Positions 233 to 12,314 of a stretch of 64,000 bases of DNA are shown here, one piece after another (the first letter of the stretch is position 1; every line of letters begins with the position of its first letter). The notes under the pieces are model-generated. The model searched no databases. It saw only the letters and a list, made by a program, of their open reading frames with translations, and was not told the DNA's origin. The position numbers and the translations under genes are program-made. The DNA is from an uncultured Bacteroidales bacterium (GTDB lineage Bacteria > Bacteroidota > Bacteroidia > Bacteroidales > VadinHA17). The DNA lies in contig CAVTPT010000002.1 of assembly GCA_963736675.1 (NCBI GenBank), forward strand, positions 352,361 to 416,360. Reading direction: 5' to 3'.

Positions 233-3219
233 ATGCAAAAACTCATTGCTAAAATATCTTTTCAGGCAGTATCTGCTCTTCAGTCCTGTCATATTATTGC
301 CTTTTACGAATGCTTCGTCACAGGATTATTTTCAGCAGGAAGTAAATTATAAAATTCAGGTGACTCTTAATGACAAAAAACATGAACTGAATGGATATCG
401 AGTCAGTTGAGTATATTAACAATTCTCCCGACACTCTGCGGTTCTTATATTTTCATCTCTGGCCGAATGCATATTCAAACAATAATACTGCATTAGCCAG
501 ACAGGTTTTCGAAATGAAGGGGAAGGCAAAACTGTTCAGAGATCAGGAATTAAAAGGATATATTGATTCACTCGATTTCGCGGCAGACAGCAATCAGGTT
601 CAATGGAACCTGTTACCGGAATCTTCTGATATTTGCATGATCATATCTAAATAATCCCCTTAAGCCTGGCGACACTGTGCTTATAACAACTCCCTTTCAT
701 GTAAAAATTCCAAAAGGAGTCACTTCACGGTTAGGTCATATAGGAGAATCGTATCAGATCTCCCAATGGTATCCCAAACCGGCAGTATATGACAGATCAG
801 GCTGGCATCAGATGCCATATCTCGATCAGGCTGAGTTCTATTCCGAATTTGGCAGTTTTGATGTAAGCATTACTCTGCCTGCTAATTATGTAGTTGGGGC
901 AACAGGTAACCTGCAGAATGAAGAGGAGAAGGAAATGCTTGAAATGTTTTCGACCGATACCTTATGGACCAGAACAAGATACTACGGACCATCTGAGTTC
1001 CCTCCAGTCCTCAGAGAATATGAAAACTCTGCGTTATACAGAGAACAATATCCATGATTTCGCATGGTTTGCCGATAAGAGGTTCAATGTCAGAAAAGGA
1101 ACAGTTAAACTCCCTGATTCGGACAGGGAGGTAACCACCTGGGTAATGTTCACCGATCAGGAAGCCTATCTCTGGAAGAATGCTATCTCATATGTAAATG
1201 ATGCCATATCGGTACTTTTTCAAAATGGATCGGAGAGTATCCTTATAATACTTTTACTGCTGTTCAGAGCGCTCTGAATTCAGGTGCTGGGATGGAGTAT
1301 CCCGGTCTGACAGTTATTGGTCTTGCAGGCGATCCCTACCTTCTGGATCAGGTGATAGCCCATGAGATTTGTCACAGCTGGTTTTACAGTGCAATCGGCT
1401 CCGATGAACGAAGATTCCCTTTTATGGATGAAAGTATTGCCACTGCATATGAATCAAGATATCTGAATGAGAGATATCCTGAAAAAAAACTTTGGGAAAT
1501 TGGATTCAAAAACAGAAAACTGGCCAGGTTTTTCCAGATTGATGATATACCGGTACAACGAATTCAGGAGCTCGAATGGCTTGTTCCGGCCCGCAGGAAC
1601 CTGGAACAACCTCTAAACCTGAGCAGCTATTGATTACAGCTACGATAATTATGGCAGTATAATTTATACAATAAAGCTGCACAGGGATTCAATTATCTGA
1701 GGGCTTATCTTGGAGATTCACTCTTTGATTCCATTATGCACGATTACTTCAGCAAATGGAAAAACAAACATCCCGGACCTGAAGATCTGAGAGCGGTCTT
1801 TGAAACTAATACCACAAAAAATCTCGCTTGGTTCTTTGATGATTTTCTGGGAACAACACAAACGGCTCGATTATAAAATAGTCCGCTATGAGAATCAGAA
1901 ATTGCTTATCAGGAACAAAGGTGAGCTGAATGCTCCCCTGGTCATTAACAGTAACGACAGGAGATTCAATCTCTTCAGAATACTGGGAAGACGGATTTGA
2001 AGGGAAGAAATGGATTGATGTCCCATGGACTGATAATTCGGAAATAATAATCGATCCGGAGCATAGGATGACTGAATTATACAGGCTTAACAACAACATC
2101 CGGACATCAGGTCTTTTCCGAAAAGCTGATCCTTTTCAACTCCGGTTCCTATATACAATTGAGGAGCCTGATAACAGATCTCTGGTTTATATTCCTGCTT
2201 TTGACTGGAACAGCTCCGATGGCTTTATGGCAGGTCTGGTATTAAATAACGGCACATTCATACCCAAACCAGTGGAATATTTTTTCATTCCTTTTTATTC
2301 ATTCCGTAATCAGGGACTTACCGGGTATGGGAGGATATCGTTTAATATAACTCCTTATGACAACCTGATCAGGATTGCAACATTTACACTTGATGGGGAA
2401 CAATTCGGAGCCCCCGGCAATCAGAATTATCAAAAAGCAAGGATAGGATTGGACCTTGGATTCAGACCCCACAATATTATTAACCCGGTATATCATAAGG
2501 TTTTTGGATATTGGCTTACTGCATCGGACCTCCGGCAGATTGAACTTCTGATTCCCGCAAAGATGCGTTCATTCATTCAGTTCGGATACAATCTGGAGAG
2601 ACCCGGAATAATAAATCCCTTTAATCTGTTGGTTTCTTCTGAATCAGGAAAATCGTTTCACAAGACATCGCTTGATTTTAATTATACATTAAGTTACTAT
2701 GGCAGGAAGAGAGGTCTGGGTATCAGATTTTTTGCCGGAGCCATGCTGAAGAATGATTCTGCAAATCCGTTTTATGCATTTTCCGCCAGCGGGAGAAGTG
2801 GCAGTGAACAATATTTATACAGGGGATTATATCCCGACCGTTTCGGTGAGCTTGCAACAAGCTTCTGGTCGCGGCAGATGGACCTGTCTGAAGGAGGATT
2901 GGTATCTCCGGTCAATGATGCCCTTGGATACAGCCGCTGGCTCTTTTCACTCTCTTTAACAAGCAGTTTGCCTGAAAAATTGTCATGGATTCCTGTAAAA
3001 CCTTTTATTAATGTATTGCTTAACGATCATGGCGCTGAAACGACTTATGAATCGCCACTTTTTTTTGAAGCAGGATTTAAGGCTGGGATATGGAACTTCT
3101 TCGAGATATACATTCCCCTGCTTGTTTCTGACAATATTGAATCAATAACCGGATCATTTAAAGACAGGATTCGTTTTGTATTCAAGCTTGATATGCTAAA
3201 TCCTCTCAAATTAAAATGA
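233..3219 (+). pseudogene. M1-family zinc metallopeptidase (aminopeptidase N-like) with a ~430-aa C-terminal extension; reading frame broken at least 6 times
   Basis: ORF pieces 391-654, 677-1057, 894-1277, 1292-1633, 1800-2000 and 1930-3219 lie in different frames but read in order as one protein. An exact HExxH-X18-E gluzincin signature is present (HEICHSWFYSAIGSDERRFPFMDE, from ~1361). The signal-peptide-like N-terminus (KYLFRQYLLFSPVILLPFTNASSQ) appears only after a frame change near the A-run at 236-241. Confidence 0.75.
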
Positions 3220-3318
3220 TCTTTTAAAAACGACTTTGCATTGTCCGGGCCGGGCGGATCTGAGAATTTTTATTAAATGGGTATCGGCTATCAATAATAA
3301 ACCTAAAACATCGATTAT

Positions 3319-3502
3319 GGGATTCCTCGCTTCACTTTGTTTCGCGTCGGAATGACAGGAATGATTTTTGAGAAGCGGGAGGGAAGCAACGGCGATTCAG
3401 GGCAGATGTCATACCTGCATATATGTATGCACGAATCGCCGTTGCTTCCCTCCACCCACTCTTAAAGATTCCTGTCAATCCCGAACGAAGTGAGGGATCT
3501 CC
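3319..3502. repeat. Imperfect ~185-bp palindromic element in the convergent gap between the peptidase and ACR3
   Basis: There is a 21-bp perfect inverted core: GGAGGGAAGCAACGGCGATTC at 3378-3398 against GAATCGCCGTTGCTTCCCTCC at 3433-3453. The outer arms pair imperfectly (ggattcctcgcttcac...ggaatgacaggaat against attcctgtcaatcc...gaagtgagggatc). Related half-motifs (caaagtaaagcg, cgacgaagtaaaag) recur at 3560-3620. Confidence 0.6.
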
Positions 3503-3709
3503 ACCAATTATGGCTGTACATGTAAAAAACCCTCTATTCTCCCGCTTCACCCCTCCGGCTGAAAGTGAATCGCAAGCCCCTGAATCAAAGTAAAGCGGAC
3601 ATCGACGAAGTAAAAGTCAAATTGGGTCTATGTATGATTCCCGATATACATATTTTATTATTTACTGTTTATCAGTAAAATTAAATGTGAAATTGGTTTA
3701 ATGCCAAAA

Positions 3710-4782
3710 TTAAGCCCATACAAATTTCCGCTTAAAATAAAGAGCAACATTAACCAGGCCTATCATTACCGGAACCTCTACCAAAGGGCCGATAACAGCA
3801 GAGAATGCTTCTCCTGAGTTTATCCCGAATACTGCAATCGCAACTGCAATAGCCAGTTCGAAATTATTACTGGCAGCAGTGAAGGACAATGTAGCAGTCT
3901 GCCCATATGTCGCACCAGCTCTTCTGCTCATGAAGAATGAAAACAGAAACATAAACACAAAATATATTATGAGAGGAATTGCAATCAATTAATAACATCC
4001 AGTGGTAATTTAACAATGTATTCACCCTTGAGTGAAAACATTACTATTATGGTGAACAATAGAGCGATAAGCGTAATCGGACTTATTCTGGGAATAAATT
4101 TGGTATTATACCAATCCTTACTCTTAACTCTTATTAAGAAATATCTTGTCAGGAAACCTGCTATAAAAGGTATTCCAAGATATATAAAAACACTCCTGGC
4201 AATTTGTCCTATCGTAATATTTTCAACAACTGAACTTGTCGGTACACCGAACCATCCTGGTAAAATTGCAATAAATACCCAGGCATAAACCGAGAATAAC
4301 AATACCTGGAAGATTGAATTAAAGGCTACCAGTCCTGCACAATATTCTGTGTCTCCTTTAGCCAGGTCGTTCCATACAATAACCATAGCAATACAACGGG
4401 CAAGTCCGATCATAATAATTCCATACATATATGGAAGATTGGCGTTGTCTTTCCCGGGGAAGAGCTTGAAGAATATTATTGCCAATGCAAACATAAGTAC
4501 AGGTCCTATTATCCAGTTCTGCACAAGCGACAGCCCCAGAATCTTAAAATTTCTGAATACACCGCCCAATTCATCATATTTAACTTTTGCCAATGGCGGA
4601 TACATCATCAGAATAAGTCCAATAGCAATGGGAATATTAGTTGTACTTTCAGGAGAAGATTTTAATGAATCCCAGAATGTTGCTATTGACGGGAAAAAGA
4701 ATCCTGAAAATACACCGATAAACATTGCAAGAAAAATCCAAAGTGTCAGATACCTGTCGAGAAATTTTAATCTGGGTTTCAT
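3710..4782 (-). pseudogene. acr3: ACR3-family arsenite efflux transporter with one frameshift
   Basis: The 265-aa piece (3985-4782, [13 protein letters not shown]...) and the 92-aa piece (3710-3988, ...[19 protein letters not shown]...) abut in different frames. The junction LPLDVIN* / IAIPLIIYF needs a 1-nt correction near 3986. Joined, they give a ~355-aa polytopic membrane protein. Confidence 0.85.
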
Positions 4783-4789
4783 CTGGGAT

Positions 4790-4852
4790 AATTTGAAAAT
4801 TTGAAAATGTGTGATACAATTTGAAAATTTGAAAATTTGAAAATTTGAAAAT
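4790..4852 (-). repeat. (ATTTTCAA)n array A1: 2 units, a GTGTGATAC spacer, then 4 units; reads ATTTTCAA on the minus strand
   Basis: Plus strand reads aatttgaaaatttgaaaat-gtgtgatac-aatttgaaaatttgaaaatttgaaaatttgaaaat. The array ends 7 nt upstream of the ACR3 ATG (4780-4782). Confidence 0.9.
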
Positions 4853-4853
4853 G

Positions 4854-5207
4854 CTAATTTGATTTTGAGGAGCTTATGATTTTGGAAAGAATTTTAATTA
4901 ATTCCGTTACAAGGATCAAGAGTTTTTCATCAAAAGGGTAAGCTGGAGTATGCTTACAAATTAACAGCCAATATTCAGTTTCATCGGCTTCCTTGGCTGC
5001 TAATTTTATCTTATGTATAAAATCAACCTTGCTCTCAGCGTTTTGTGCTTCACGTATATTAGCTCCTATTGATGTACCGGATCTCAGCAGTTGCCTTGAA
5101 AAAACATATTTTTTGCTTTCTTCTAATAATTCGCAGTATAAGACTATTTCCAGTGCAAAATGAAACGATTTCTCAACAATTACGTTCTCTTTATCATTCC
5201 TCATCAA
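4854..5207 (-). CDS. Four-helix-bundle protein (23S rRNA intervening-sequence protein / Avd fold family), copy 1
   Basis: 117-aa intact ORF with the family core [42 protein letters not shown]. Confidence 0.8.
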
Positions 5208-5230
5208 ATCATATATTTAGTGTCTTGATA

Positions 5231-5265
5231 ATTTTCAAATTTTCAAATTCCCAAATTTTCAAATT
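5231..5265 (+). repeat. (ATTTTCAA)n array A2, inverted relative to A1
   Basis: Plus strand reads attttcaaattttcaaattcccaaattttcaaatt, directly between the arsM stop and the start of 4HB copy 1. Confidence 0.9.
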
Positions 5266-6029
5266 AATTAGCTTTCTCAGCATAAACAGTGATACTGAAA
5301 ATTCCGGAACCTGATTCTTTAAAATCCTTTAATTCTTTTTGATCAAGATAATTCTGTAAAGTATCATCAGGGATTGATATGATTTTATCCTTATGTACTT
5401 TGACATTTTCCAAACCGGAATCTTCAATCATTTTCAGATACCTGTCATTTCAATTGCTCCGGAAACACATCCGGCATACATTTCAGCATGCCTGTTGCAT
5501 TTTTTCATGACAGGGTGCCTTTAATAACCACATCTGAGACACGGAAAGATGTCCACCAGGTTTCAGAACCCTGAAAATCTCCTGGAATGCTTTTGCTTTA
5601 TCAGGAACAAGGTTAAGCACACAATTGCTGAAATTACAACATCAGCTGTATTTTCTAACTGGCATATCTTCAATATCCCCAGCACAAATTCAACATTTGT
5701 GAATCCCAGTTTCTCAGTATTTTCTCTTGCTTTTTCTATCATTGCTTCAGTCATATCCAGCACCGGTAACCTTTCCGGTTTCTCCAACTATTGCCCTTGC
5801 AACAAAACAATCATTCCCTGCACCGCTACCAAGGTCAAGAACTGATCACCTTTTTAATATGGGCAAAATCTGTGGGGATTCCGCAACCAAGATTCAGGTC
5901 AGCATCAGGATTATATCCTTTCTGATTTTCATAATTTTCGCTGAATACAGTATAATCAACTCCCGAACAACAGGATGAAGTTCCGCAGCAGGAGGATTGC
6001 TGGTTAGTTCTGCTTTGCAATTTCTCCAT
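5264..6029 (-). pseudogene. arsM: Arsenite S-adenosylmethionine methyltransferase (ArsM-like) with at least 5 frame changes
   Basis: Piece 5835-6029 reads CCGTSSCC...DADLNLGCGIPT and piece 5563-5787 reads LDMTEAMIEKARENTEKLGFTNVEF. Hand translation of the other frames recovers VLDLGSGAGNDCFVARAIVGETGKVTG (SAM motif I), [28 protein letters not shown], and the C-terminus GSGIFSITVYAEKAN*. Confidence 0.75.
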
Positions 6030-6074
6030 ATTTTTCTTTTACAATTTGTTTTAATTCTTCTGATTTCATATAAT

Positions 6075-6173
6075 AATTTGAAAATTTGAAAATGTGTAAT
6101 CAATTTGAAAATTTGAAAATTTGAAAATTTGAAAATGAACTATTTAATTTGAAAATGTGACAATTTGAAAATT
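6075..6173 (-). repeat. (ATTTTCAA)n array A3, same composite layout as A1 plus two extra partial blocks
   Basis: Plus strand reads aatttgaaaatttgaaaat-gtgtaatc-aatttgaaaatttgaaaatttgaaaatttgaaaat-gaactattt-aatttgaaaat-gtgac-aatttgaaaatt. Confidence 0.9.
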
Positions 6174-6189
6174 ATTTTTAAAATAGTTA

Positions 6190-6538
6190 TCAGGACTTTG
6201 AAGAACCAGGAATTTCAGACAAGATCTTAATTAATTCTCCTGGATCATTAATAAGGAGTTCATCAAAGGGATATGAGTTTGAGTTTTTACATAATAATAA
6301 CCAATATTCTGTTTCGTCTGCTTCTTTAGCGGCAAGCTTTATTTTATGAATAAAATCAAGTTTGCTTTCTGCATTCTGTGCCTCCCGCACATTTGCTCCA
6401 ATCGAAGTTCCGGACCTTAATAATTGACGTGATATTACAAACTTCTTATTCTTCTTCTGACAACTCACAGTATTGTACTACTTTAAGTGCAAACCGGAAT
6501 GATTTTTCAACAATGATATTTTCTTTATCATTTCTCAT
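6190..6538 (-). pseudogene. Four-helix-bundle protein, copy 2 (paralog of 4854-5207), with one frameshift
   Basis: The N-terminal frame from the ATG at 6536-6538 reads MRNDKENIIVEKSFRFALKVVQYCELSEEE*. The listed ORF 6190-6468 continues with [52 protein letters not shown] 1-nt shift lies in gaagaagaataagaag. Confidence 0.75.
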
Positions 6539-6557
6539 AAAATTTAATTGCTTTAAC

Positions 6558-6593
6558 AATTTTCAAATTTTCAAATTTTCAAATTTTCAAATT
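6558..6593 (+). repeat. (ATTTTCAA)n array A4, inverted relative to A3
   Basis: Plus strand reads aattttcaaattttcaaattttcaaattttcaaatt. It overlaps the last codons and the stop codon of arsC. Confidence 0.9.
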
Positions 6594-6999
6594 CTTCTCA
6601 TAAAATTTCCGAAACTCATCCCTTATCAGATCTCTGACTCTGCGGAATTCACTCATTATGAATTCTTCTGAACCGGTGGCATTTGACGGATCTTCAAAAC
6701 CTATATGCAACCTATGTTTCACTTTGCCCATGAACAAACGGGCATGTTTCATTTGCATGATCACAAACAGTTATTACATAATCCCATTCTTCGCCAAGGT
6801 ATTGGTCAACAAGCTTGGGAGTGTGATGGCTTATATCAATTCCTGCTTCCTTCATCACCATTACTGCCTTTTGATTTATCTGTTTTGCCGGTTCTGTACC
6901 AGCTGAACGGACAGTGATTTTATCGTCGAAACTCTGCAGGAAGCCATGAGCCATCTGACTGCGGCAGCTGTTACCGGTACAAAGAATCAGGATTTTCAT
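6579..6999 (-). pseudogene. arsC: Arsenate reductase, LMW-PTPase (thioredoxin-coupled) type, with one frameshift
   Basis: MKILILCTGNSCRSQMAHGF carries the CX5R P-loop. The piece ending ...DHANETCPFVHGQSET* continues in another frame as (F)FMGKVKHRLHIGFEDPS. Deleting one nt in cccgtttgttcatg restores CPFFMGKVKH. The likely start is the ATG at 6997-6999, inside listed ORF 6712-7107. Confidence 0.8.
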
Positions 7000-7039
7000 G
7001 TTTCTGAATTTATAATTATTTAAGAAACTATTGATGCTA

Positions 7040-7071
7040 CAAATATAAAAACATTTCGTATATTTGCGAAA
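7040..7071. promoter_or_regulatory. Divergent arsC/arsR promoter-operator region: back-to-back TATATTTG boxes and a TTTCG-N8-CGAAA dyad
   Basis: TATATTTG occurs on the minus strand at 7040-7047 and on the plus strand at 7059-7066; both match the Bacteroidota -7 consensus TAnnTTTG. The dyad TTTCG(7054-7058)-tatatttg-CGAAA(7067-7071) encloses the plus-strand box. Confidence 0.4.
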
Positions 7072-7096
7072 CATCAAAATAAAAATATTCATAATA

Positions 7097-7450
7097 ATGT
7101 CAGGCAAATTGGAATTTACTCATGAAGTGCAGCAAATAGCCAGATTTTCAAAGGCTCTGAGTCACCCGGTAAGAGTATATATTCTTCAGAAACTGTCGAA
7201 GATGAACTCTTGTTGCTACAGCGGAGATCTGGTTGAAGAGCTGCCGGTTGGCAGATCTACTCTTTCACAACATCTGAAGGAGTTGAAATATGCCGGTCTG
7301 ATACAGGGAGAAATTAATCCTCCATATATTAAATATTGTATTAACAGAAAAAACTGGGAAGAAGCGAAACAACTTTTTACTTCATTTCTTAATGAAAGTG
7401 AAACCGCAGAGGTAAACTGTGAAATACACGATAATTCCGGTCACAAATAG
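7097..7450 (+). CDS. arsR: ArsR/SmtB-family metalloregulator (copy 1)
   Basis: ARFSKALSHPVRVYILQKL...CCYSGDLVEELPVGRSTLSQHLKELKYAGLI shows a winged HTH with a Cys pair before the HTH. The ATG at 7097 is preferred over the listed upstream start at 7064. Confidence 0.8.
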   Translation: MSGKLEFTHEVQQIARFSKALSHPVRVYILQKLSKMNSCCYSGDLVEELPVGRSTLSQHLKELKYAGLIQGEINPPYIKYCINRKNWEEAKQLFTSFLNESETAEVNCEIHDNSGHK

Positions 7451-7461
7451 AATAACTACTT

Positions 7462-7497
7462 AATTTTCAAATTAACTCATTTTCAAATTTTCAAATT
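7462..7497 (+). repeat. (ATTTTCAA)n array A5
   Basis: Reads aattttcaaatt-aactc-attttcaaattttcaaatt and ends 6 nt before the ATG at 7504. Confidence 0.85.
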
Positions 7498-7503
7498 AAT
7501 ACC

Positions 7504-7743
7504 ATGGAAATAAAAATCTTAGGCACAGGATGTCCCAAATGCAAAACACTTGAAAAAGTGACACGTGAAGCTGTTGCAGAAACTGGTATTAATGCAACAA
7601 TCGAAAAAGTTGAAGATATCGTTAAAATAATGGAGTACAGTGTAATGCATACACCTGTTCTTGTTATTAACGGGAAGGTCGTTCTCAGCGGCCAGGTACC
7701 AACAGTGAATCAGGTAAAAGAAATACTAATTAAAAATCAATAA
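7504..7743 (+). CDS. Small thioredoxin-fold protein (redox-active disulfide protein 2 type)
   Basis: 79 aa, starting MEIKILGTGCPKCKTLE with an N-terminal CxxC. Confidence 0.75.
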   Translation: MEIKILGTGCPKCKTLEKVTREAVAETGINATIEKVEDIVKIMEYSVMHTPVLVINGKVVLSGQVPTVNQVKEILIKNQ

Positions 7744-7753
7744 ATCAGAAACT

Positions 7754-8200
7754 ATGAAAACTTTCAGATTAATTATTGCCATTTTATTGTTTGCCCCGGT
7801 TATTGCATGTACAGCACAGCCATCAAATAAACAGGCAGAAGCTTCTGACAACAACTCCGATAAAATTGAAGCTTACTACTTTCACTTCACTGCCCGCTGC
7901 ACAACCTGCAAAACAATTGAAGCCAGTGCTAAAGAAAATCTTGAAACTCTTTATCCAAACCAGTTTAAACAGGGATTAATTACGTTTCAGTCTGTTAACC
8001 TTGAAGAAGCACCCAATAAGCCTCTTGCAGATAAACTTGGTGTTTCAGGGCAGACTCTGCTTATTGTAAAAGGTGATAAGAAGATCAACCTTACCAACGA
8101 AGGTTTCATGTATGCAGTTGTCAAACCTGAGAAATTCAAAGAGATAATCAACGAAAAAGTTGATGGTCTCCTGGCTCAGATAACTGTATGGAATTTCTGA
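7754..8200 (+). CDS. Exported thioredoxin-like CxxC protein; possibly ArsF-family, from memory only
   Basis: Signal or lipoprotein N-terminus (LLFAPVIACTAQ) and FTARCTTCKTIE (CxxC). The ORF overlaps the next gene by 13 nt. Confidence 0.5.
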   Translation: MKTFRLIIAILLFAPVIACTAQPSNKQAEASDNNSDKIEAYYFHFTARCTTCKTIEASAKENLETLYPNQFKQGLITFQSVNLEEAPNKPLADKLGVSGQTLLIVKGDKKINLTNEGFMYAVVKPEKFKEIINEKVDGLLAQITVWNF

Positions 8201-8886
8201 CAAATTTATTGGAAAACAGCACAATGCCGTGGCTAACGGCATTGCTGCTGGGTTTAATGACTGCAATAAGTCCCTGTCCGCTTGCCACAAACATTACTGC
8301 AATCGGATTTATAAGCAAAGACATTGAAAACCGCAACAGGGTATTCATTAATGGACTGGTCTATACTCTTGGCAGGGCAATCACTTATACTGCAATCGCA
8401 TTAATAATCTTCCTCGGAGCTGACCAGCTGAAGTTTGGAGGATTCTTTCAACGCTATGGTGAAAAGATTGTTGGTCCGTTGCTGATCTTAATAGGGTTAT
8501 TCATGCTCGATATAATCAAAATAAAATTCCCGGGATTTAACAGACTGACATCAGGGATGCAGGATAAAAAGAAATGGGGGTATTTTGATGCATTACTGCT
8601 TGGTTTGCTTTTTGCCCTTGCATTCTGCCCGTACAGCGGCGTACTTTATTTCGGGATGCTTGTTCCCCTTACTGTTTCAAGTGCCTCCGGACTTTACCTC
8701 CCGGTCATCTTTGCAGTGGCAACGGGAATTCCGGTGATAATTATAGCATGGGTACTTGCTTATACAGTTTCCGGGATCGGTAATGTCTATAACAAGATCA
8801 AATCATTTGAACTCTGGTTCAGACGGATCATAGCTGTTCTGTTTATTGCTGTCGGGATTTATTATATAATAAGGGTTTATCTGTAA
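8188..8886 (+). CDS. DsbD/CcdA-fold polytopic membrane protein; candidate thiol-disulfide transducer or ArsG-type permease
   Basis: About 6 TM segments, with Cys-Pro motifs inside TM segments (AISPCPLATN and FCPYSGVLYF). Confidence 0.55.
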   Translation: MEFLTNLLENSTMPWLTALLLGLMTAISPCPLATNITAIGFISKDIENRNRVFINGLVYTLGRAITYTAIALIIFLGADQLKFGGFFQRYGEKIVGPLLILIGLFMLDIIKIKFPGFNRLTSGMQDKKKWGYFDALLLGLLFALAFCPYSGVLYFGMLVPLTVSSASGLYLPVIFAVATGIPVIIIAWVLAYTVSGIGNVYNKIKSFELWFRRIIAVLFIAVGIYYIIRVYL

Positions 8887-8902
8887 TTTTTTTAATAAAA
8901 TG

Positions 8903-8920
8903 TTTCGTTATTTCACGAAA
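8903..8920. promoter_or_regulatory. Second TTTCG-N8-CGAAA dyad, operon-internal
   Basis: TTTCG-ttatttca-CGAAA, overlapping a second dyad gttatttc-ac-gaaataac. It lies between the DsbD-like gene and array A6. Confidence 0.35.
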
Positions 8921-8933
8921 TAACATCACTGAC

Positions 8934-8987
8934 ATTTCAAATTTCAAATTACATTTTCAAATTATCTCATTTTCAAATTTTCAAATT
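8934..8987 (+). repeat. (ATTTTCAA)n array A6
   Basis: Reads atttcaaatttcaaatt-ac-attttcaaatt-atctc-attttcaaattttcaaatt and ends 3 nt before the ATG at 8991. Confidence 0.85.
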
Positions 8988-8990
8988 AAA

Positions 8991-10336
8991 ATGGAACTCA
9001 AAAAAGAATTAAAAATACTTTCTGGATAGCAGCAGTTTTTGCATTTGCATTTTTTCTTCCTATAGAAAGTGCCAGGTTTAATACTGCAATTGCAGCAACA
9101 CTTGATCTTGTAAAATGGTATGCACGTGAGCATTTTATATCTATGCCTTCTGCCTGCATTTTTTATTGCAGGAGTAATTTCTGTCTTCGTGAGTCAGGCA
9201 TCAGTATTAAAATATTTCGGTGCACAGGCAAAGAAATGGGTAGCATATACTGTTGCAGCTGTTTCAGGAACAATCCTGGCTGTCTGTTCATGTACTATAC
9301 TTCCTTTGTTTTCAAGTATTCACAAACGAGGTGCAGGACTTGGTCCGGCAATAGCATTTCTTTATTCAGGACCTGCAATCAATATTCTGGCAATTATTCT
9401 TACAGCTCGTATTTTAGGTCTTGAGATGGGAGTTGCAAGGACAGTAGGTGCTGTCTCATTCAGCGTATTAATCGGACTTGTAATGGCTTTCATCTACCGT
9501 AAGGAAGAAAAAGCCAAAAAAGAAGAACAGATGAATATTACTCCCCCTCCTGAGAAAAGACCGATGTGGCAGACATCATTACATTTTTTTACACTTGTTC
9601 TGATCCTTGTCTTTGCCAACTGGGGTAAACCTGCTGAAGGAGATACCACAAGTACATGGTACTATCTATCTGGCATTATAAATGGTATATAACAGGATTT
9701 TTCAGTCTTGTTCTGGGTTATTCATTAATTAAGATATTAAAGATCAAATGGCAATGGGTACTTGGTGCAGTTGTGGTCACAGTTGCTTCAGTAATTCTGG
9801 CCAATAATCTGATTGAAAATGATAAACTCAGACCTCTTGTTCCAATGCTTGTCGGAATCATTTCTCTGAGTGTCATTACTCTTTTGGACAAAAATGATGA
9901 AGAAAACAAAGCCTGGACAATCGCAACCTGGGACTTTGCAAAACTAATTATTCCATTGCTTGCAATTGGAGTTGTTATTGCAGGATTCCTGTTAGGCTCA
10001 ACCCATGACGGAAAGACGATTGCAGGTGTAATTCCAAATGAATGGATATCTGCTCTTGTCGGAGGAAATTCTGTCTTTTCAAATTTCTTTGCATCGATAG
10101 TTGGTGCTTTCATGTATTTCGCCACACTGACGGAGGTTCCTATTGTTCAGGGACTTCTGGCTGCAGGAATGGGGAAAGGGCCTGCTCTTGCACTTCTTCT
10201 TGCCGGACCATCACTGTCATTGCCAAGTATGCTTGTTATCCAGAAAGTAATGGGAACTCAAAAGACAGTTGTCTATGTAACTCTTGTTGTTGTTTTTTCT
10301 ACAATAGCAGGCTTGGTTTTTGGTTCAATTTTTTAA
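8991..10336 (+). pseudogene. ArsP-like / COG0701-type permease with about 3 frameshifts
   Basis: Starts with MELKKELKIL at 8991. The next frame gives IAAVFAFAFFLPIESARFNTAIAATLDLVKWYAREH. It then continues through listed ORF 9120-9692 (LLPAFFIAGVISVF...TILAVCSCTILPLF) and 9656-10336 (...MYFATLTEVPIVQGLL...). Frame changes lie near 9030, 9135 and 9665. Confidence 0.7.
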
Positions 10337-10354
10337 TCCTTTATATAATTCACT

Positions 10355-10681
10355 ATGGAAACAAAAAAGACACCAATGGAATTGCTGAAGGAGTTCGCAC
10401 CAGATTTTGCCCGGCACCAGATGAACGATAAAGCTCTTCTATTTGAAAGTGAGAAATACCAGGCTCTTCCGAAGAAATACAAATTGCTTGCAGGTATAGC
10501 AACTGCTGCTGCTCTCGGATCAGACACATGTGTCAGAATGTGGGTAAAGCAGGCTAAAGATGCCGGTATCAAAAATGGGGAAATAGTTGAAGCAATAATG
10601 GTTGCACGATACATGAAACAGGCAGTTGTAAATGATACCGTTGCAAATACTCTGGCTTTGCTCTCAGAAAAAAAATTATAG
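10355..10681 (+). CDS. Carboxymuconolactone decarboxylase (AhpD-like) family protein
   Basis: 108 aa, with KYKLLAGIATAAALGSDTCVRMWVKQAKDAGIKNGEIVEAI. Confidence 0.55.
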   Translation: METKKTPMELLKEFAPDFARHQMNDKALLFESEKYQALPKKYKLLAGIATAAALGSDTCVRMWVKQAKDAGIKNGEIVEAIMVARYMKQAVVNDTVANTLALLSEKKL

Positions 10682-10692
10682 TGCTTCTTTAA

Positions 10693-10935
10693 ATGCTGGA
10701 CATTAAAATCCTTGGAACCGGTTGTCCTAACTGCATCAGACTTGAAAATATGTGCGGGGAGGTGGTTGCTGAAAACAATCTGGATGCTGCTATCGAAAAG
10801 GTTTCAAATGTAGACGATTTCTGGAAATATGGAGTAATGCTGACACCAGCATTAATACTTAATGGAAAGCTTCTGATCCAGGGTAAGTTGCCAACAAAAC
10901 ATACCCTTGTTCACTGGTTGGTTGATAATCGATAG
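10693..10935 (+). CDS. Small thioredoxin-fold protein (redox-active disulfide protein 2 type), second copy
   Basis: 80 aa, starting MLDIKILGTGCPNCIRLE; a paralog of 7504-7743. Confidence 0.75.
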   Translation: MLDIKILGTGCPNCIRLENMCGEVVAENNLDAAIEKVSNVDDFWKYGVMLTPALILNGKLLIQGKLPTKHTLVHWLVDNR

Positions 10936-10965
10936 TATTATTCTATAAATCATAATCATAAGCAT

Positions 10966-11193
10966 ATGAAAATACCAAAAAAGCATGAAATGAAAGTTTC
11001 GCTCACAATCATGGTTCTTATAATGACCGTTGTAGTAACCTTCGTCAGTGTTTCTGTAAATTTTGGATATAATACGGGAATTACATTAACCTGGCTCAAA
11101 TCGTGGGGACTGGCTTTTATTGTTGCTTTACCGGTGGTAATGATCATAATGCCATATATTAAAAAGTTAGTAGGTAAGTTTGTAAAGGATTAA
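10966..11193 (+). CDS. DUF2798-like small two-TM membrane protein
   Basis: 75 aa with two hydrophobic helices (LTIMVLIMTVVVTFVSV and WGLAFIVALPVVMIIM). Confidence 0.45.
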   Translation: MKIPKKHEMKVSLTIMVLIMTVVVTFVSVSVNFGYNTGITLTWLKSWGLAFIVALPVVMIIMPYIKKLVGKFVKD

Positions 11194-11207
11194 ATAAAGT
11201 TCAGGAA

Positions 11208-11444
11208 ATGGAACAATTTAAACATCTTGATTCAAAAACAGTTGAGCTTGCAGGGATAGCAGCATCAATAGCCGGAGGATGCCGTCCTTGTCTCGATTAT
11301 CATTTTAAGAAGGGGATTGAAACAGGCTGCACTATTGATCAGGTAAAAGAAGCTATTGAGCTGGGTAAAATGATAAAGCAAAGACCGATAAAAGATATTT
11401 ACGGGCAGGCCGAAAAACTGATCGGAAATATAAACAAACCATAG
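11208..11444 (+). CDS. AhpD/CMD-like protein with a CxxC motif
   Basis: 78 aa, with LAGIAASIAGGCRPCLDYHFKKG. Confidence 0.55.
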   Translation: MEQFKHLDSKTVELAGIAASIAGGCRPCLDYHFKKGIETGCTIDQVKEAIELGKMIKQRPIKDIYGQAEKLIGNINKP

Positions 11445-11479
11445 TGTTATTTACTGTTAATAAAATAATTAGGGATAAT

Positions 11480-11881
11480 ATGAAAACAAAAAGAAAATTG
11501 TTTTTGCTCTTCGTAATACTGACTGCTATTGTTATAAACACAGACTGTTCAGGACAATCTTCAAAAGCAGAAGATAAGGCAGGTAAGGGAACCGGAAAGT
11601 ATAAAGTTACTTTTATTGAGCTTGGTTCAGTCCGCTGTATCCCATGCCAGCAAATGCAGCCTGTAATGAAATCAGTTGAAGAGAAATACGCTAAAGATGT
11701 AAAGGTTGTTTTCCATGATGTATGGACCGAAACAGGTGCACCTTATGCAAAACAATATGGTATTGAAGCGATTCCCACCCAGGTTTTTCTTGACAAGGAT
11801 GGAAAAGAGTTCTTCAGACATGTCGGCTACTTCCCGGAAGAGGAACTTGTAAAAGTACTTCAGCAGAAAGGAGTCAAATAA
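11480..11881 (+). CDS. Exported thioredoxin-family protein
   Basis: MKTKRKLFLLFVILTAIVINTDCSGQ looks like a signal or lipoprotein sequence. CIPCQQM is the CxxC. The listed ORF starts at an upstream GTG (11444); the ATG at 11480 is preferred. Confidence 0.7.
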   Translation: MKTKRKLFLLFVILTAIVINTDCSGQSSKAEDKAGKGTGKYKVTFIELGSVRCIPCQQMQPVMKSVEEKYAKDVKVVFHDVWTETGAPYAKQYGIEAIPTQVFLDKDGKEFFRHVGYFPEEELVKVLQQKGVK

Positions 11882-11883
11882 TT

Positions 11884-12297
11884 ATGACCACTTCTGACAC
11901 ACCGGGTTTCCATGACTTTAACATTGCAGGTGTTAAACACATAACCCCCGATAATGCTTATTCAGCATTGAAGTGCGGTGGCGCAATTATGATAGATGTC
12001 AGGGAAGAGTATGAATACATGGTTGAATTCATTTCCCTGAATGGTGTATATCACCTGCCTATGTCATCAATAATGGATAATCTTCATAGTATTCCTAAGG
12101 ATAAACCTGTAATAACCATGTGTAACGCAGGCGTTCGTAGCACAAAGGTGACCAATATGCTTAAACGCAACGGGTTTCCTGATTCAGTCAATCTCGATGG
12201 TGGACGTCATAAATGGAAAGAAAAAGGTCTGCCATATGAAAACATTCTTCCTGATGCATGCAACCATTGCCATGGATCATGCAACTGCGCACATTAG
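11884..12297 (+). CDS. Rhodanese-domain sulfurtransferase with a Cys/His-rich tail
   Basis: Active-site loop MCNAGVRS (CX4R) and C-terminal DACNHCHGSCNCAH. Confidence 0.7.
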   Translation: MTTSDTPGFHDFNIAGVKHITPDNAYSALKCGGAIMIDVREEYEYMVEFISLNGVYHLPMSSIMDNLHSIPKDKPVITMCNAGVRSTKVTNMLKRNGFPDSVNLDGGRHKWKEKGLPYENILPDACNHCHGSCNCAH

Positions 12298-12314
12298 AAA
12301 TATAAATAAGGCAG

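Follow-up and report, generated by a model that had tools for sequence, protein, structure and literature searches.

Four-helix-bundle protein genes framed by inverted short-repeat arrays at the junctions of a Bacteroidales ars operon

The window studied here is a stretch of 64,000 nucleotides (nt) from an uncultured Bacteroidales bacterium (GenBank assembly GCA_963736675.1, contig CAVTPT010000002.1, positions 352,361 to 416,360) that contains an ars operon consisting of arsC, arsM and ACR3. Both junctions of this operon are occupied by a cassette composed of a gene for a four-helix-bundle (4HB) protein and two flanking arrays of a tandemly repeated 8-nt unit. On the coding strand, the 5' arm of a cassette, termed F, is (TTTGAAAA)n and the 3' arm, termed R, is (ATTTTCAA)n. 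With the four arrays designated A1 to A4, the order of elements on the minus strand is arsC, A4, 4HB gene 2, A3, arsM, A2, 4HB gene 1, A1 and ACR3. Both cassettes follow the same formula on the coding strand, i.e., stop codon, F arm, 4HB open reading frame (ORF), R arm, 5-7 nt and the ATG of the next gene. Cassette coordinates and placement within the ars operon had been proposed in a preliminary description made from the DNA letters and their translations, and were found to be correct with Tandem Repeats Finder and with Pfam, which identified arsC, arsM and ACR3, all on the minus strand (Table 1).

Tandem Repeats Finder recorded arrays of period 8 with 4.5-12.5 copies at all four positions. 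They are non-coding tandem direct repeats of the 5-11-nt unit class, and the R arms A1 and A3 face a start codon at a distance of a few nt. As stated in the preliminary description, the paired arrays are reverse complements of each other, with 94% complementarity over 35 nt for A1/A2 and 100% over 35 nt for A3/A4, and the layout shared by A1 and A3 (two units, a GTGT-type spacer and four units) is real. These two arrays are identical at 64 of 67 positions (96%), yet the ORFs of the two cassettes are only 73-77% identical, a divergence that marks the paralogues as old copies and not as the result of recent transposition. The 16-mer TTTGAAAATTTGAAAA is present 18 times in the window when up to two mismatches are allowed, compared with an expectation of 0.37, and all 18 occurrences are located inside positions 4792-8985. 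A search for repeats in the region 4700-7600 gave nothing beyond the arrays and the two paralogous ORFs, and an Rfam scan of positions 3500-9500 returned no rRNA and no other relevant family. The G+C content is 33.5% for the 4HB ORFs, 35-38% for the ars region and 42-43% for the remainder of the window. Within the 64 kb, arrays of this unit are confined to the low-G+C ars/thiol-redox island (3700-12300), and this confinement together with the low G+C content hints that the island was acquired horizontally.

The product of 4HB gene 1 matches PF05635 with 80 bits (E 1.8e-22, cut-off 33.8 bits) and TIGR02436 with 91.5 bits (E 3.7e-26, cut-off 24 bits). A four-helix-bundle fold is suggested by a full-length sequence match to the solved structure PDB 2RLD (E 8e-27). 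A 92-amino-acid piece of the second gene product reaches 63.4 bits against PF05635 (E 2.6e-17). The protein encoded by gene 1 is identical to database protein P0001; an exact look-up of the window 4HB protein returned no record, and the cluster look-up gave neither an accession nor a name. PF05635 is the sole domain encoded in the cassettes, and neither a transposase nor a recombinase or nuclease domain was detected with Pfam, NCBIfam and PADLOC. The 4HB protein also had no PADLOC match that would indicate a role in anti-phage defence. A single-sequence search identified 8,889 representatives of the TIGR02436/PF05635 family at 50% identity. Judged from dN/dS values of 0.01-0.15, obtained with saturated synonymous sites, the 4HB protein is under strong purifying selection.

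Whether 4HB genes elsewhere are associated with inverted arrays had been raised as a question in the preliminary description, and the answer is affirmative. We fetched 80 relatives (57-88% identical) from metagenomes via protein motifs alone and thus blind to repeats; the comparison loci and contigs carry L-numbers in the following, L001 being a related contig. Enough flanking DNA was available for 67 of the 80 genes, and the threshold was set at the 99th percentile of 201 control pairs. Flanks with inverted repeats scoring above this threshold were present at 59 of the 67 4HB genes (88%), while the same score was reached by just 7-8% of 777 other genes from the same or from array-rich loci. 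Wherever both neighbors were visible, cassettes predominantly resided between co-directional genes on the same strand (42 of 51). Median distances are -1.5 nt between the end of the upstream stop codon and the start of the F arm and 7 nt between the end of the R arm and the ATG that follows, and the median outer length of the cassettes is 468 nt. Direct similarity between the flanks was seen in 20 of the 67 cassettes, mostly alongside inverted similarity, and stems in part from the near-palindromic nature of the unit.

Table 1. Features of the ars region and neighboring genes in the 64,000-nt window. Sequence units are given as read on the coding strand.
Feature	Position	Strand	Remarks
Aminopeptidase gene	391-3219		broken by frameshifts into about five pieces
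ACR3, arsenite efflux gene	3710-4782	-	PF01758 SBF, E 4.4e-60; downstream neighbor of cassette 1; frameshift at about 3985
Cassette 1	4790-5265	-	476 nt
A1, R arm of cassette 1	4790-4852	-	(ATTTTCAA)4 + spacer + (ATTTTCAA)2; 7 nt from ACR3 ATG (4782)
4HB gene 1	4854-5204	-	ORF 4854-5207; 116 amino acids, intact; PF05635, TIGR02436 and 2RLD matches
A2, F arm of cassette 1	5230-5265	-	TTTGAAAA-TTTGGGAA-TTTGAAAA-TTTGAAAA; overlaps arsM stop codon (5264-5266)
arsM, arsenite methyltransferase gene	5264-6069	-	between the cassettes; several frameshifts; Methyltransf_31/25 matches on fragments
Cassette 2	6075-6593	-	519 nt
A3, R arm of cassette 2	6075-6173	-	A1-like composite layout plus extra units; 5 nt from arsM ATG (6069)
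4HB gene 2, paralogue	6190-6538	-	one frameshift near 6450-6470; translations of two frames join to a full-length protein
A4, F arm of cassette 2	6558-6593	-	(TTTGAAAA)4.5; contains the last five arsC codons and the TGA stop
arsC, low-molecular-weight phosphatase type (LMWPc)	6579-7000	-	PF01451, E 4e-20; upstream of cassette 2; one frameshift
Solo R-type array	7462-7497	+	ATTTTCAA; 6 nt from Thioredoxin_3 ATG (7504); no 4HB gene, no partner arm
Solo R-type array	8934-8987	+	ATTTTCAA; 4 nt from ATG 8992; no 4HB gene, no partner arm
Permease gene	8992-10336		frameshifted; ATG 8992 probably the true start

In some of the cassettes, TTTGAAAA is replaced by other 8-nt units, namely TAATGTGC, CAATGTGC, GATTTGAT, AGATGTGC or GTTTCAAG, and despite these differences the downstream arm is always the complement of the upstream arm. 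The occupied junctions include sdhA/sdhB, scoA/scoB (on three contigs), leuC/leuD and, within one operon, both sufB/sufC and sufC/sufD. Among cultivable bacteria, carriers are known from Flavobacterium (scoA-4HB-scoB, and gmk-4HB-nadD in F. columnare), Nostoc and Bacteroides. The two cassettes of this suf operon (L126, reverse strand, about 300-2100) encode deeply diverged 4HB proteins and differ in their units, with TTTGAAAA at sufB/sufC and GTTTCAAG at sufC/sufD. The array-4HB-array unit recurs in Logan short-read contigs, in a GenBank metagenome-assembled genome, in RefSeq genomes of isolates and in finished plasmids. The starts of four independent Logan contigs (L003-L006) all fall within the upstream array of one and the same 4HB gene, at a distance of 59 nt from it, and many 4HB relatives reside on contigs of less than 2 kb. 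The arrays seem to break short-read assemblies, a point of practical relevance.

The occurrence of such cassettes is not restricted to Bacteroidota. A tblastn search of plasmids revealed 4HB genes in cyanobacteria, Treponema, Chlorohelix, Monoglobus and Cytophagia. All 13 annotated plasmid genes that were scored (from Cyanobacteriota, Spirochaetota, Chloroflexota and Cytophagia) adjoin tandem arrays of 7-8-nt units, and ten of the 13 have clear inverted brackets with lineage-specific units. Nostoc punctiforme, for instance, has (GGAGGTC)n/(GACCTCC)n, N. flagelliforme and Aulosira share (AATTCAA)n/(TTTTGAA)n, Dolichospermum has (TAATTCG)n/(TTACGAA)n and Bernardetia (GATTAGT)n, while Treponema features GGAAAGTG-type arrays. 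Outside this set of 13, short inverted arrays were apparent by eye at a degraded, unannotated copy in Monoglobus (Bacillota). It is very likely that the two window cassettes belong to a widespread intercistronic class in which a TIGR02436 gene is framed by reverse-complementary arrays of 7-8-nt units.

In other phyla, 4HB cassettes are often hosted by defense and restriction operons (L213, L217, L218, L223, L224, L225). The contexts include hsdS/hsdR, DISARM drmD/MmeI, DUF1156/Swt1-HEPN and a position beside cas1/cas2, and the DUF1156/Swt1-HEPN junction is occupied in both a cyanobacterium and a Chloroflexota plasmid.

With regard to the origin of the cassettes, orthologous ars operons lacking them are informative. 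The preliminary description had named such empty sites as a check, and two were found. In L208 and L211, arsC and arsM overlap (ATGA), arsM and ACR3 are separated by a spacer of 20 nt, and neither arrays nor a 4HB gene are present; their arsM shares 86-88% identity with arsM of L001. As these sites lack both components, arrays and gene appear to arrive together, and the cassettes probably originated by insertion. The idea of insertion modules resembling the intervening sequences (IVS) of rRNA, put forward in the preliminary description, finds support in topology, size and cargo, with empty sites on the one hand and the same unit at unrelated junctions on the other. Inspection by eye revealed no target-site duplication at the two window cassettes. 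Recombination between arrays, also considered in the preliminary description, is not needed to explain the origin of the cassettes and is seen as a secondary effect: L001 contains a tandem duplication of arsM and the 4HB gene (1453-4543, period 1451 nt), so that three 4HB copies are found on this contig. In L210, the arsM/ACR3 junction carries a hairpin devoid of an ORF, and positions 1900-3000 contain F 'superarrays' of great length, in which a 43-nt higher-order repeat is the building block. It is evident that arrays can grow, and they may give rise to operon rearrangements such as duplications, although an error of long-read assembly is possible in the cases of L001 and L210.

The arrays themselves are far more widespread than the 4HB genes. 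An exact scan for (ATTTTCAA)3 in one genome per species yielded at least 120 loci, nearly all from Bacteroidota and including isolates; the following numbers apply among the matches listed. A 4HB gene of the window subfamily is present in six of 120 loci, and a broader profile adds a seventh in L126. All seven are bracketed within about 0.9 Mb of array-selected loci, and about 95% of the sampled (ATTTTCAA)n arrays lack a 4HB gene. The arrays are thus not specific for 4HB genes. Counting both strands, there are 207 R-type arrays, 85 of which precede a long ORF with a gap that peaks at 8-11 nt, and the ORFs in question include rpsS, rplP, tsf, groEL and adk. Many R arrays have an F array 7-100 nt upstream and so form an ORF-less hairpin. 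In the array-containing loci, the lengths of the loops between F and R are bimodal (7-100 or 350-503 nt), and each long loop (at least 350 nt) encloses a 4HB gene in sense orientation. We also considered that the ORF-less hairpins might be deletion derivatives of 4HB cassettes and rejected this idea, as 16 loops of 60-340 nt did not contain any recognizable 4HB remnant (all E >1).

How could an operon tolerate such insertions? The F arm contains TGA in all three frames, whereas no frame of the R arm is closed. By virtue of these stop codons the F arm would close the upstream reading frame in whichever frame it is entered, and the R arm, being free of stop codons and rich in A/U, could act as leader of the downstream gene. 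A closing F arm combined with an open R arm is also the principle behind engineered non-polar cassettes. In the transcript of the operon, F and R may pair over about 30-36 bp and loop out the 4HB ORF. Pairing would return the stop and start codons of the neighboring genes to within a few nt of each other, as at the empty sites, so that the insertion would do little harm to the operon. A duplex of A/U pairs of up to about 30 bp with the 4HB ORF in the loop had been anticipated in the preliminary description, and folding of the minus strand indeed predicts each 4HB ORF in the loop of an A/U-rich stem of 34-36 bp (z = -4.2 and -2.6). In the predicted minimum-free-energy fold A1 pairs with A2, including its GGG variant unit TTTGGGAA, which is accommodated via G-U pairs, and A4 likewise forms a stem in the fold of cassette 2. 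A near-perfect duplex of at least 30 bp would be a plausible substrate for RNase III, by analogy with the IVS of Coxiella.

The IVS of the Coxiella burnetii 23S rRNA has a length of 428-444 nt, a stem of 28 bp and an S23p ORF, and is cut by RNase III within the stem (PMC4990558). Like the rRNA IVSs of Coxiella and Leptospira, the cassettes carry an ORF of the PF05635 family as cargo in the loop of a stem formed by terminal inverted repeats. Median cassette length (468 nt) and predicted stem (about 30-36 bp) are close to the Coxiella values, and the predicted enclosing stem of at least 20 bp, the length of a few hundred nt and the PF05635 ORF, which is optional in IVSs, all agree with the definition of an IVS. 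Both types of element are lower in G+C than their surroundings and reside in transcribed regions, in which the flanking parts can be kept together by a stem. They differ in their hosts, which are helices of 23S or 16S rRNA for IVSs and the intervals between cistrons of a protein-coding operon for the cassettes. The flanks in the window are arsC, arsM and ACR3, and no 23S motifs were present in any of the fetched loci. The arms of the cassettes are tandem arrays of a 7-8-nt unit and abut the stop and start codons of neighboring genes. In addition, S23p of Coxiella is apparently not made in vivo (PMC4990558), in contrast to the clear purifying selection on the cassette protein. Excision by RNase III is established for IVSs and putative for the cassettes.

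Taken together, a compact intercistronic IVS-like insertion module of about 470 nt is the explanation that we prefer, by a narrow balance of probability. For a functional stem in the sense RNA or for processing by RNase III, which would be analogous to the rRNA case, we consider the chances to be somewhat below even. Several observations weigh against the preferred explanation. Arrays A1 and A4 belong to different cassettes and are nevertheless 100% complementary, so that pairing across cassettes would be equally good in the window. In L001, L210, Treponema, Planktothrix and Chlorohelix, the gene lies between a hairpin comprising both arms on its 5' side and another array or hairpin on its 3' side, and in this second architecture the gene is not simply located in a loop. 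Among the matches listed, arrays are about 20 times commoner without than with a 4HB gene. Other genes can take the place of the 4HB gene: at the arsM/ACR3 junction of L209 (3807-4163), a gene for a GDCCVxC protein (68 amino acids, NF041374, E 1.3e-32) is located between F and R arrays, and in L018 (2545-2923) a GxxExxY gene (TIGR04256, E 2e-36) is enclosed by short inverted arrays of the AACGCAACG/CGTTGCGTT type. Brackets of this kind may thus have a further cargo in GxxExxY, which is likewise a small multi-copy family. Finally, in the unbiased sample, transitions compatible with G-U pairing were equally frequent in sense and antisense (77 vs. 77; 14 vs. 19 under strict counting), and duplex energies did not differ between sense and antisense (-37.1 vs. 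-37.3 kcal/mol, p = 0.6). An earlier hint of strand asymmetry (p = 0.002) came from a smaller, array-selected and therefore biased set and vanished in the unbiased sample. Due to this strand symmetry, selection for pairing of the sense RNA is not demonstrated, and a role of the arms at the DNA level fits equally well.

Accordingly, an element that moves or recombines as DNA remains a serious rival, even though we rate it as rather unlikely. The arrays would then serve on DNA as terminal repeats or attachment sequences, for example through cruciform formation or recombination between arrays, and the element would supply a nucleic-acid-binding factor of its own in the form of the 4HB protein. 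The ORF-less hairpins would be non-autonomous relatives or empty landing sites, and any pairing of the RNA would be a side effect. Complementarity of the arms is the same on both strands, with no RNA-specific signature, sites are either occupied or empty, and 88% of the 4HB genes have arrays while, among the matches listed, only about 5% of the arrays have a 4HB gene, which is reminiscent of RAYTs and REPINs. REPIN/RAYT systems and miniature inverted-repeat transposable elements (MITEs) such as the Correia elements of Neisseria are short, dispersed, multicopy intergenic palindromes that are co-transcribed with their neighbors, and Correia elements are RNase III targets. The arrays share with these systems that a minority flanks a specific small gene which, in turn, is nearly always flanked. 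The analogy ends at the 4HB protein, which has no transposase or nuclease domain, and at the arms, which resemble microsatellites of variable length and not a fixed terminal repeat. Whole hairpins on both sides of the gene (Chlorohelix, Planktothrix, L210), the duplication with a period of 1451 nt in L001, the low G+C content of 4HB ORFs and ars region (33.5% and 35-38% vs. 42-43%) and the 96% identity of A1 and A3 next to 73-77% for the ORFs would all suit a DNA-level element. They have to be set against the lack of a transposase, recombinase or nuclease domain in the cassette, the age of the window paralogues, the lack of a target-site duplication discernible by eye at the window cassettes and loops of 60-340 nt without 4HB remnants. 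In addition, the same site is occupied by diverged proteins in different species (scoA/scoB in L072, L076 and L162; sdhA/sdhB in L037 and L115), which indicates long vertical residence. The DNA-level and RNA-level explanations are not mutually exclusive.

Alternatively, the arrays could be ordinary pre-start repeats, i.e., heptamers, long simple sequence repeats (LSSR) or short tandemly repeated repetitive (STRR) sequences, and the bracket around 4HB genes would be meaningless. Reports of tandem 7-8-nt arrays in front of start codons go back to the cyanobacterial STRRs. The two solo arrays in the window, the 85 of 207 R-type arrays that precede a long ORF with a peak at 8-11 nt (among the matches listed) and the enclosure of ribosomal-protein genes by inverted arrays in some cases are in line with this explanation. 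So are published repeats: TAACTGA heptamers are located just 5' of start codons in Beggiatoaceae, cyanobacteria and Bacteroidetes (PMC4679880; MacGregor, 2015), and TTTTGAA/TTCAAAA repeats occur near start codons in Nostoc (bioRxiv 10.1101/2022.06.06.494920). Together with STRR and LSSR (Mrazek et al.), they resemble the arrays described here in that they are tandem 7-8-nt units, non-coding, oriented and placed just before a start codon. Their hosts are Bacteroidetes and cyanobacteria, and the solo window arrays as well as most arrays of L008-L127 fit this picture. The respective papers describe neither paired inverted arrays that bracket a gene nor a link to the 4HB family, and TAACTGA repeats point their stop-containing orientation toward the start codon, while the cassette arrays present the stop-free one. 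A meaningless bracket is nonetheless quite improbable, since the bracket is at least tenfold commoner at 4HB genes than at other genes of the same loci (88% vs. 7-8%), is found with unrelated units in no fewer than four phyla and, among the matches listed, surrounds seven of seven 4HB genes in about 0.9 Mb of array-selected loci, where all loops of at least 350 nt enclose a 4HB gene. Moreover, both the arrays and the gene are missing from empty sites. An artefact of assembly or sequencing of a noisy long-read contig, or low complexity by chance, has a negligible probability. Aminopeptidase, ACR3, arsM, arsC and permease genes in the window are broken by frameshifts, most likely uncorrected errors of a noisy long-read assembly rather than pseudogenization, and the related contig L001 is likewise ridden with frameshifts; for this reason the exact copy numbers of the repeats are uncertain. 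The array-4HB-array unit is present in independent assemblies (Logan contigs, metagenome-assembled genome, RefSeq isolates and finished plasmids), which refutes the artefact for practical purposes, and the 18 occurrences of the 16-mer against 0.37 expected are also at odds with it.

ORF-carrying IVSs of rRNA and short tandem repeats in front of start codons were known already. What appears to be new is that this 4HB family is framed as a rule by inverted arrays, precisely between cistrons and in several phyla; a prior description was not found in open-access papers and preprints. Searches of the same literature for the PF05635/TIGR02436 'four helix bundle protein' in connection with repeats, and for the repeat 16-mers, did not reveal a link. 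The TIGR02436/PF05635 family is very large, with many copies per genome, and has hitherto been referred to only as 'IVS protein' and relative of Avd, a protein with affinity for nucleic acid and for a reverse transcriptase. The window cassettes differ from diversity-generating retroelements (DGRs), as they have neither a reverse transcriptase nor a pair of template and variable repeats beside them, but ars genes as neighbors. Avd, the accessory protein of DGRs, is a member of this family with a homologous four-helix-bundle fold (PMC10053308). The connection between the 4HB protein and inverted arrays links two puzzles, the protein family and the short arrays in front of start codons, with each other and with the IVSs of rRNA. 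In the broadest version, which we regard as unlikely, 4HB genes with inverted-array arms would constitute one class of elements spanning phyla, with the 23S IVSs as its special case in rRNA, and the 4HB protein would be a trans-acting partner that binds, maintains or spreads the STRR, LSSR and heptamer arrays of Bacteroidota, cyanobacteria and Beggiatoaceae.

Some further features of the window concern the arrays and the genes next to them. The start of arsM (MKSEELK) agrees with that of arsM from L001 and from homologues, which are named arsenite methyltransferase. With regard to the 5' arm as a promoter, a sigma-70 scan, which is uninformative for Bacteroidota, yielded 27 sites compared with 21 expected, and the 8-nt spacing of TTTG, assessed by eye, disagrees with the -33/-7 spacing of Bacteroidetes promoters. 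The two solo arrays on the plus strand and the many frameshifted genes had been overlooked in the preliminary description. A leader consisting of CATTTTCAAATTTTCAAATTA, 2-6 nt and ATG is common to four genes of the island, namely ACR3, arsM, the Thioredoxin_3 gene and the permease gene.

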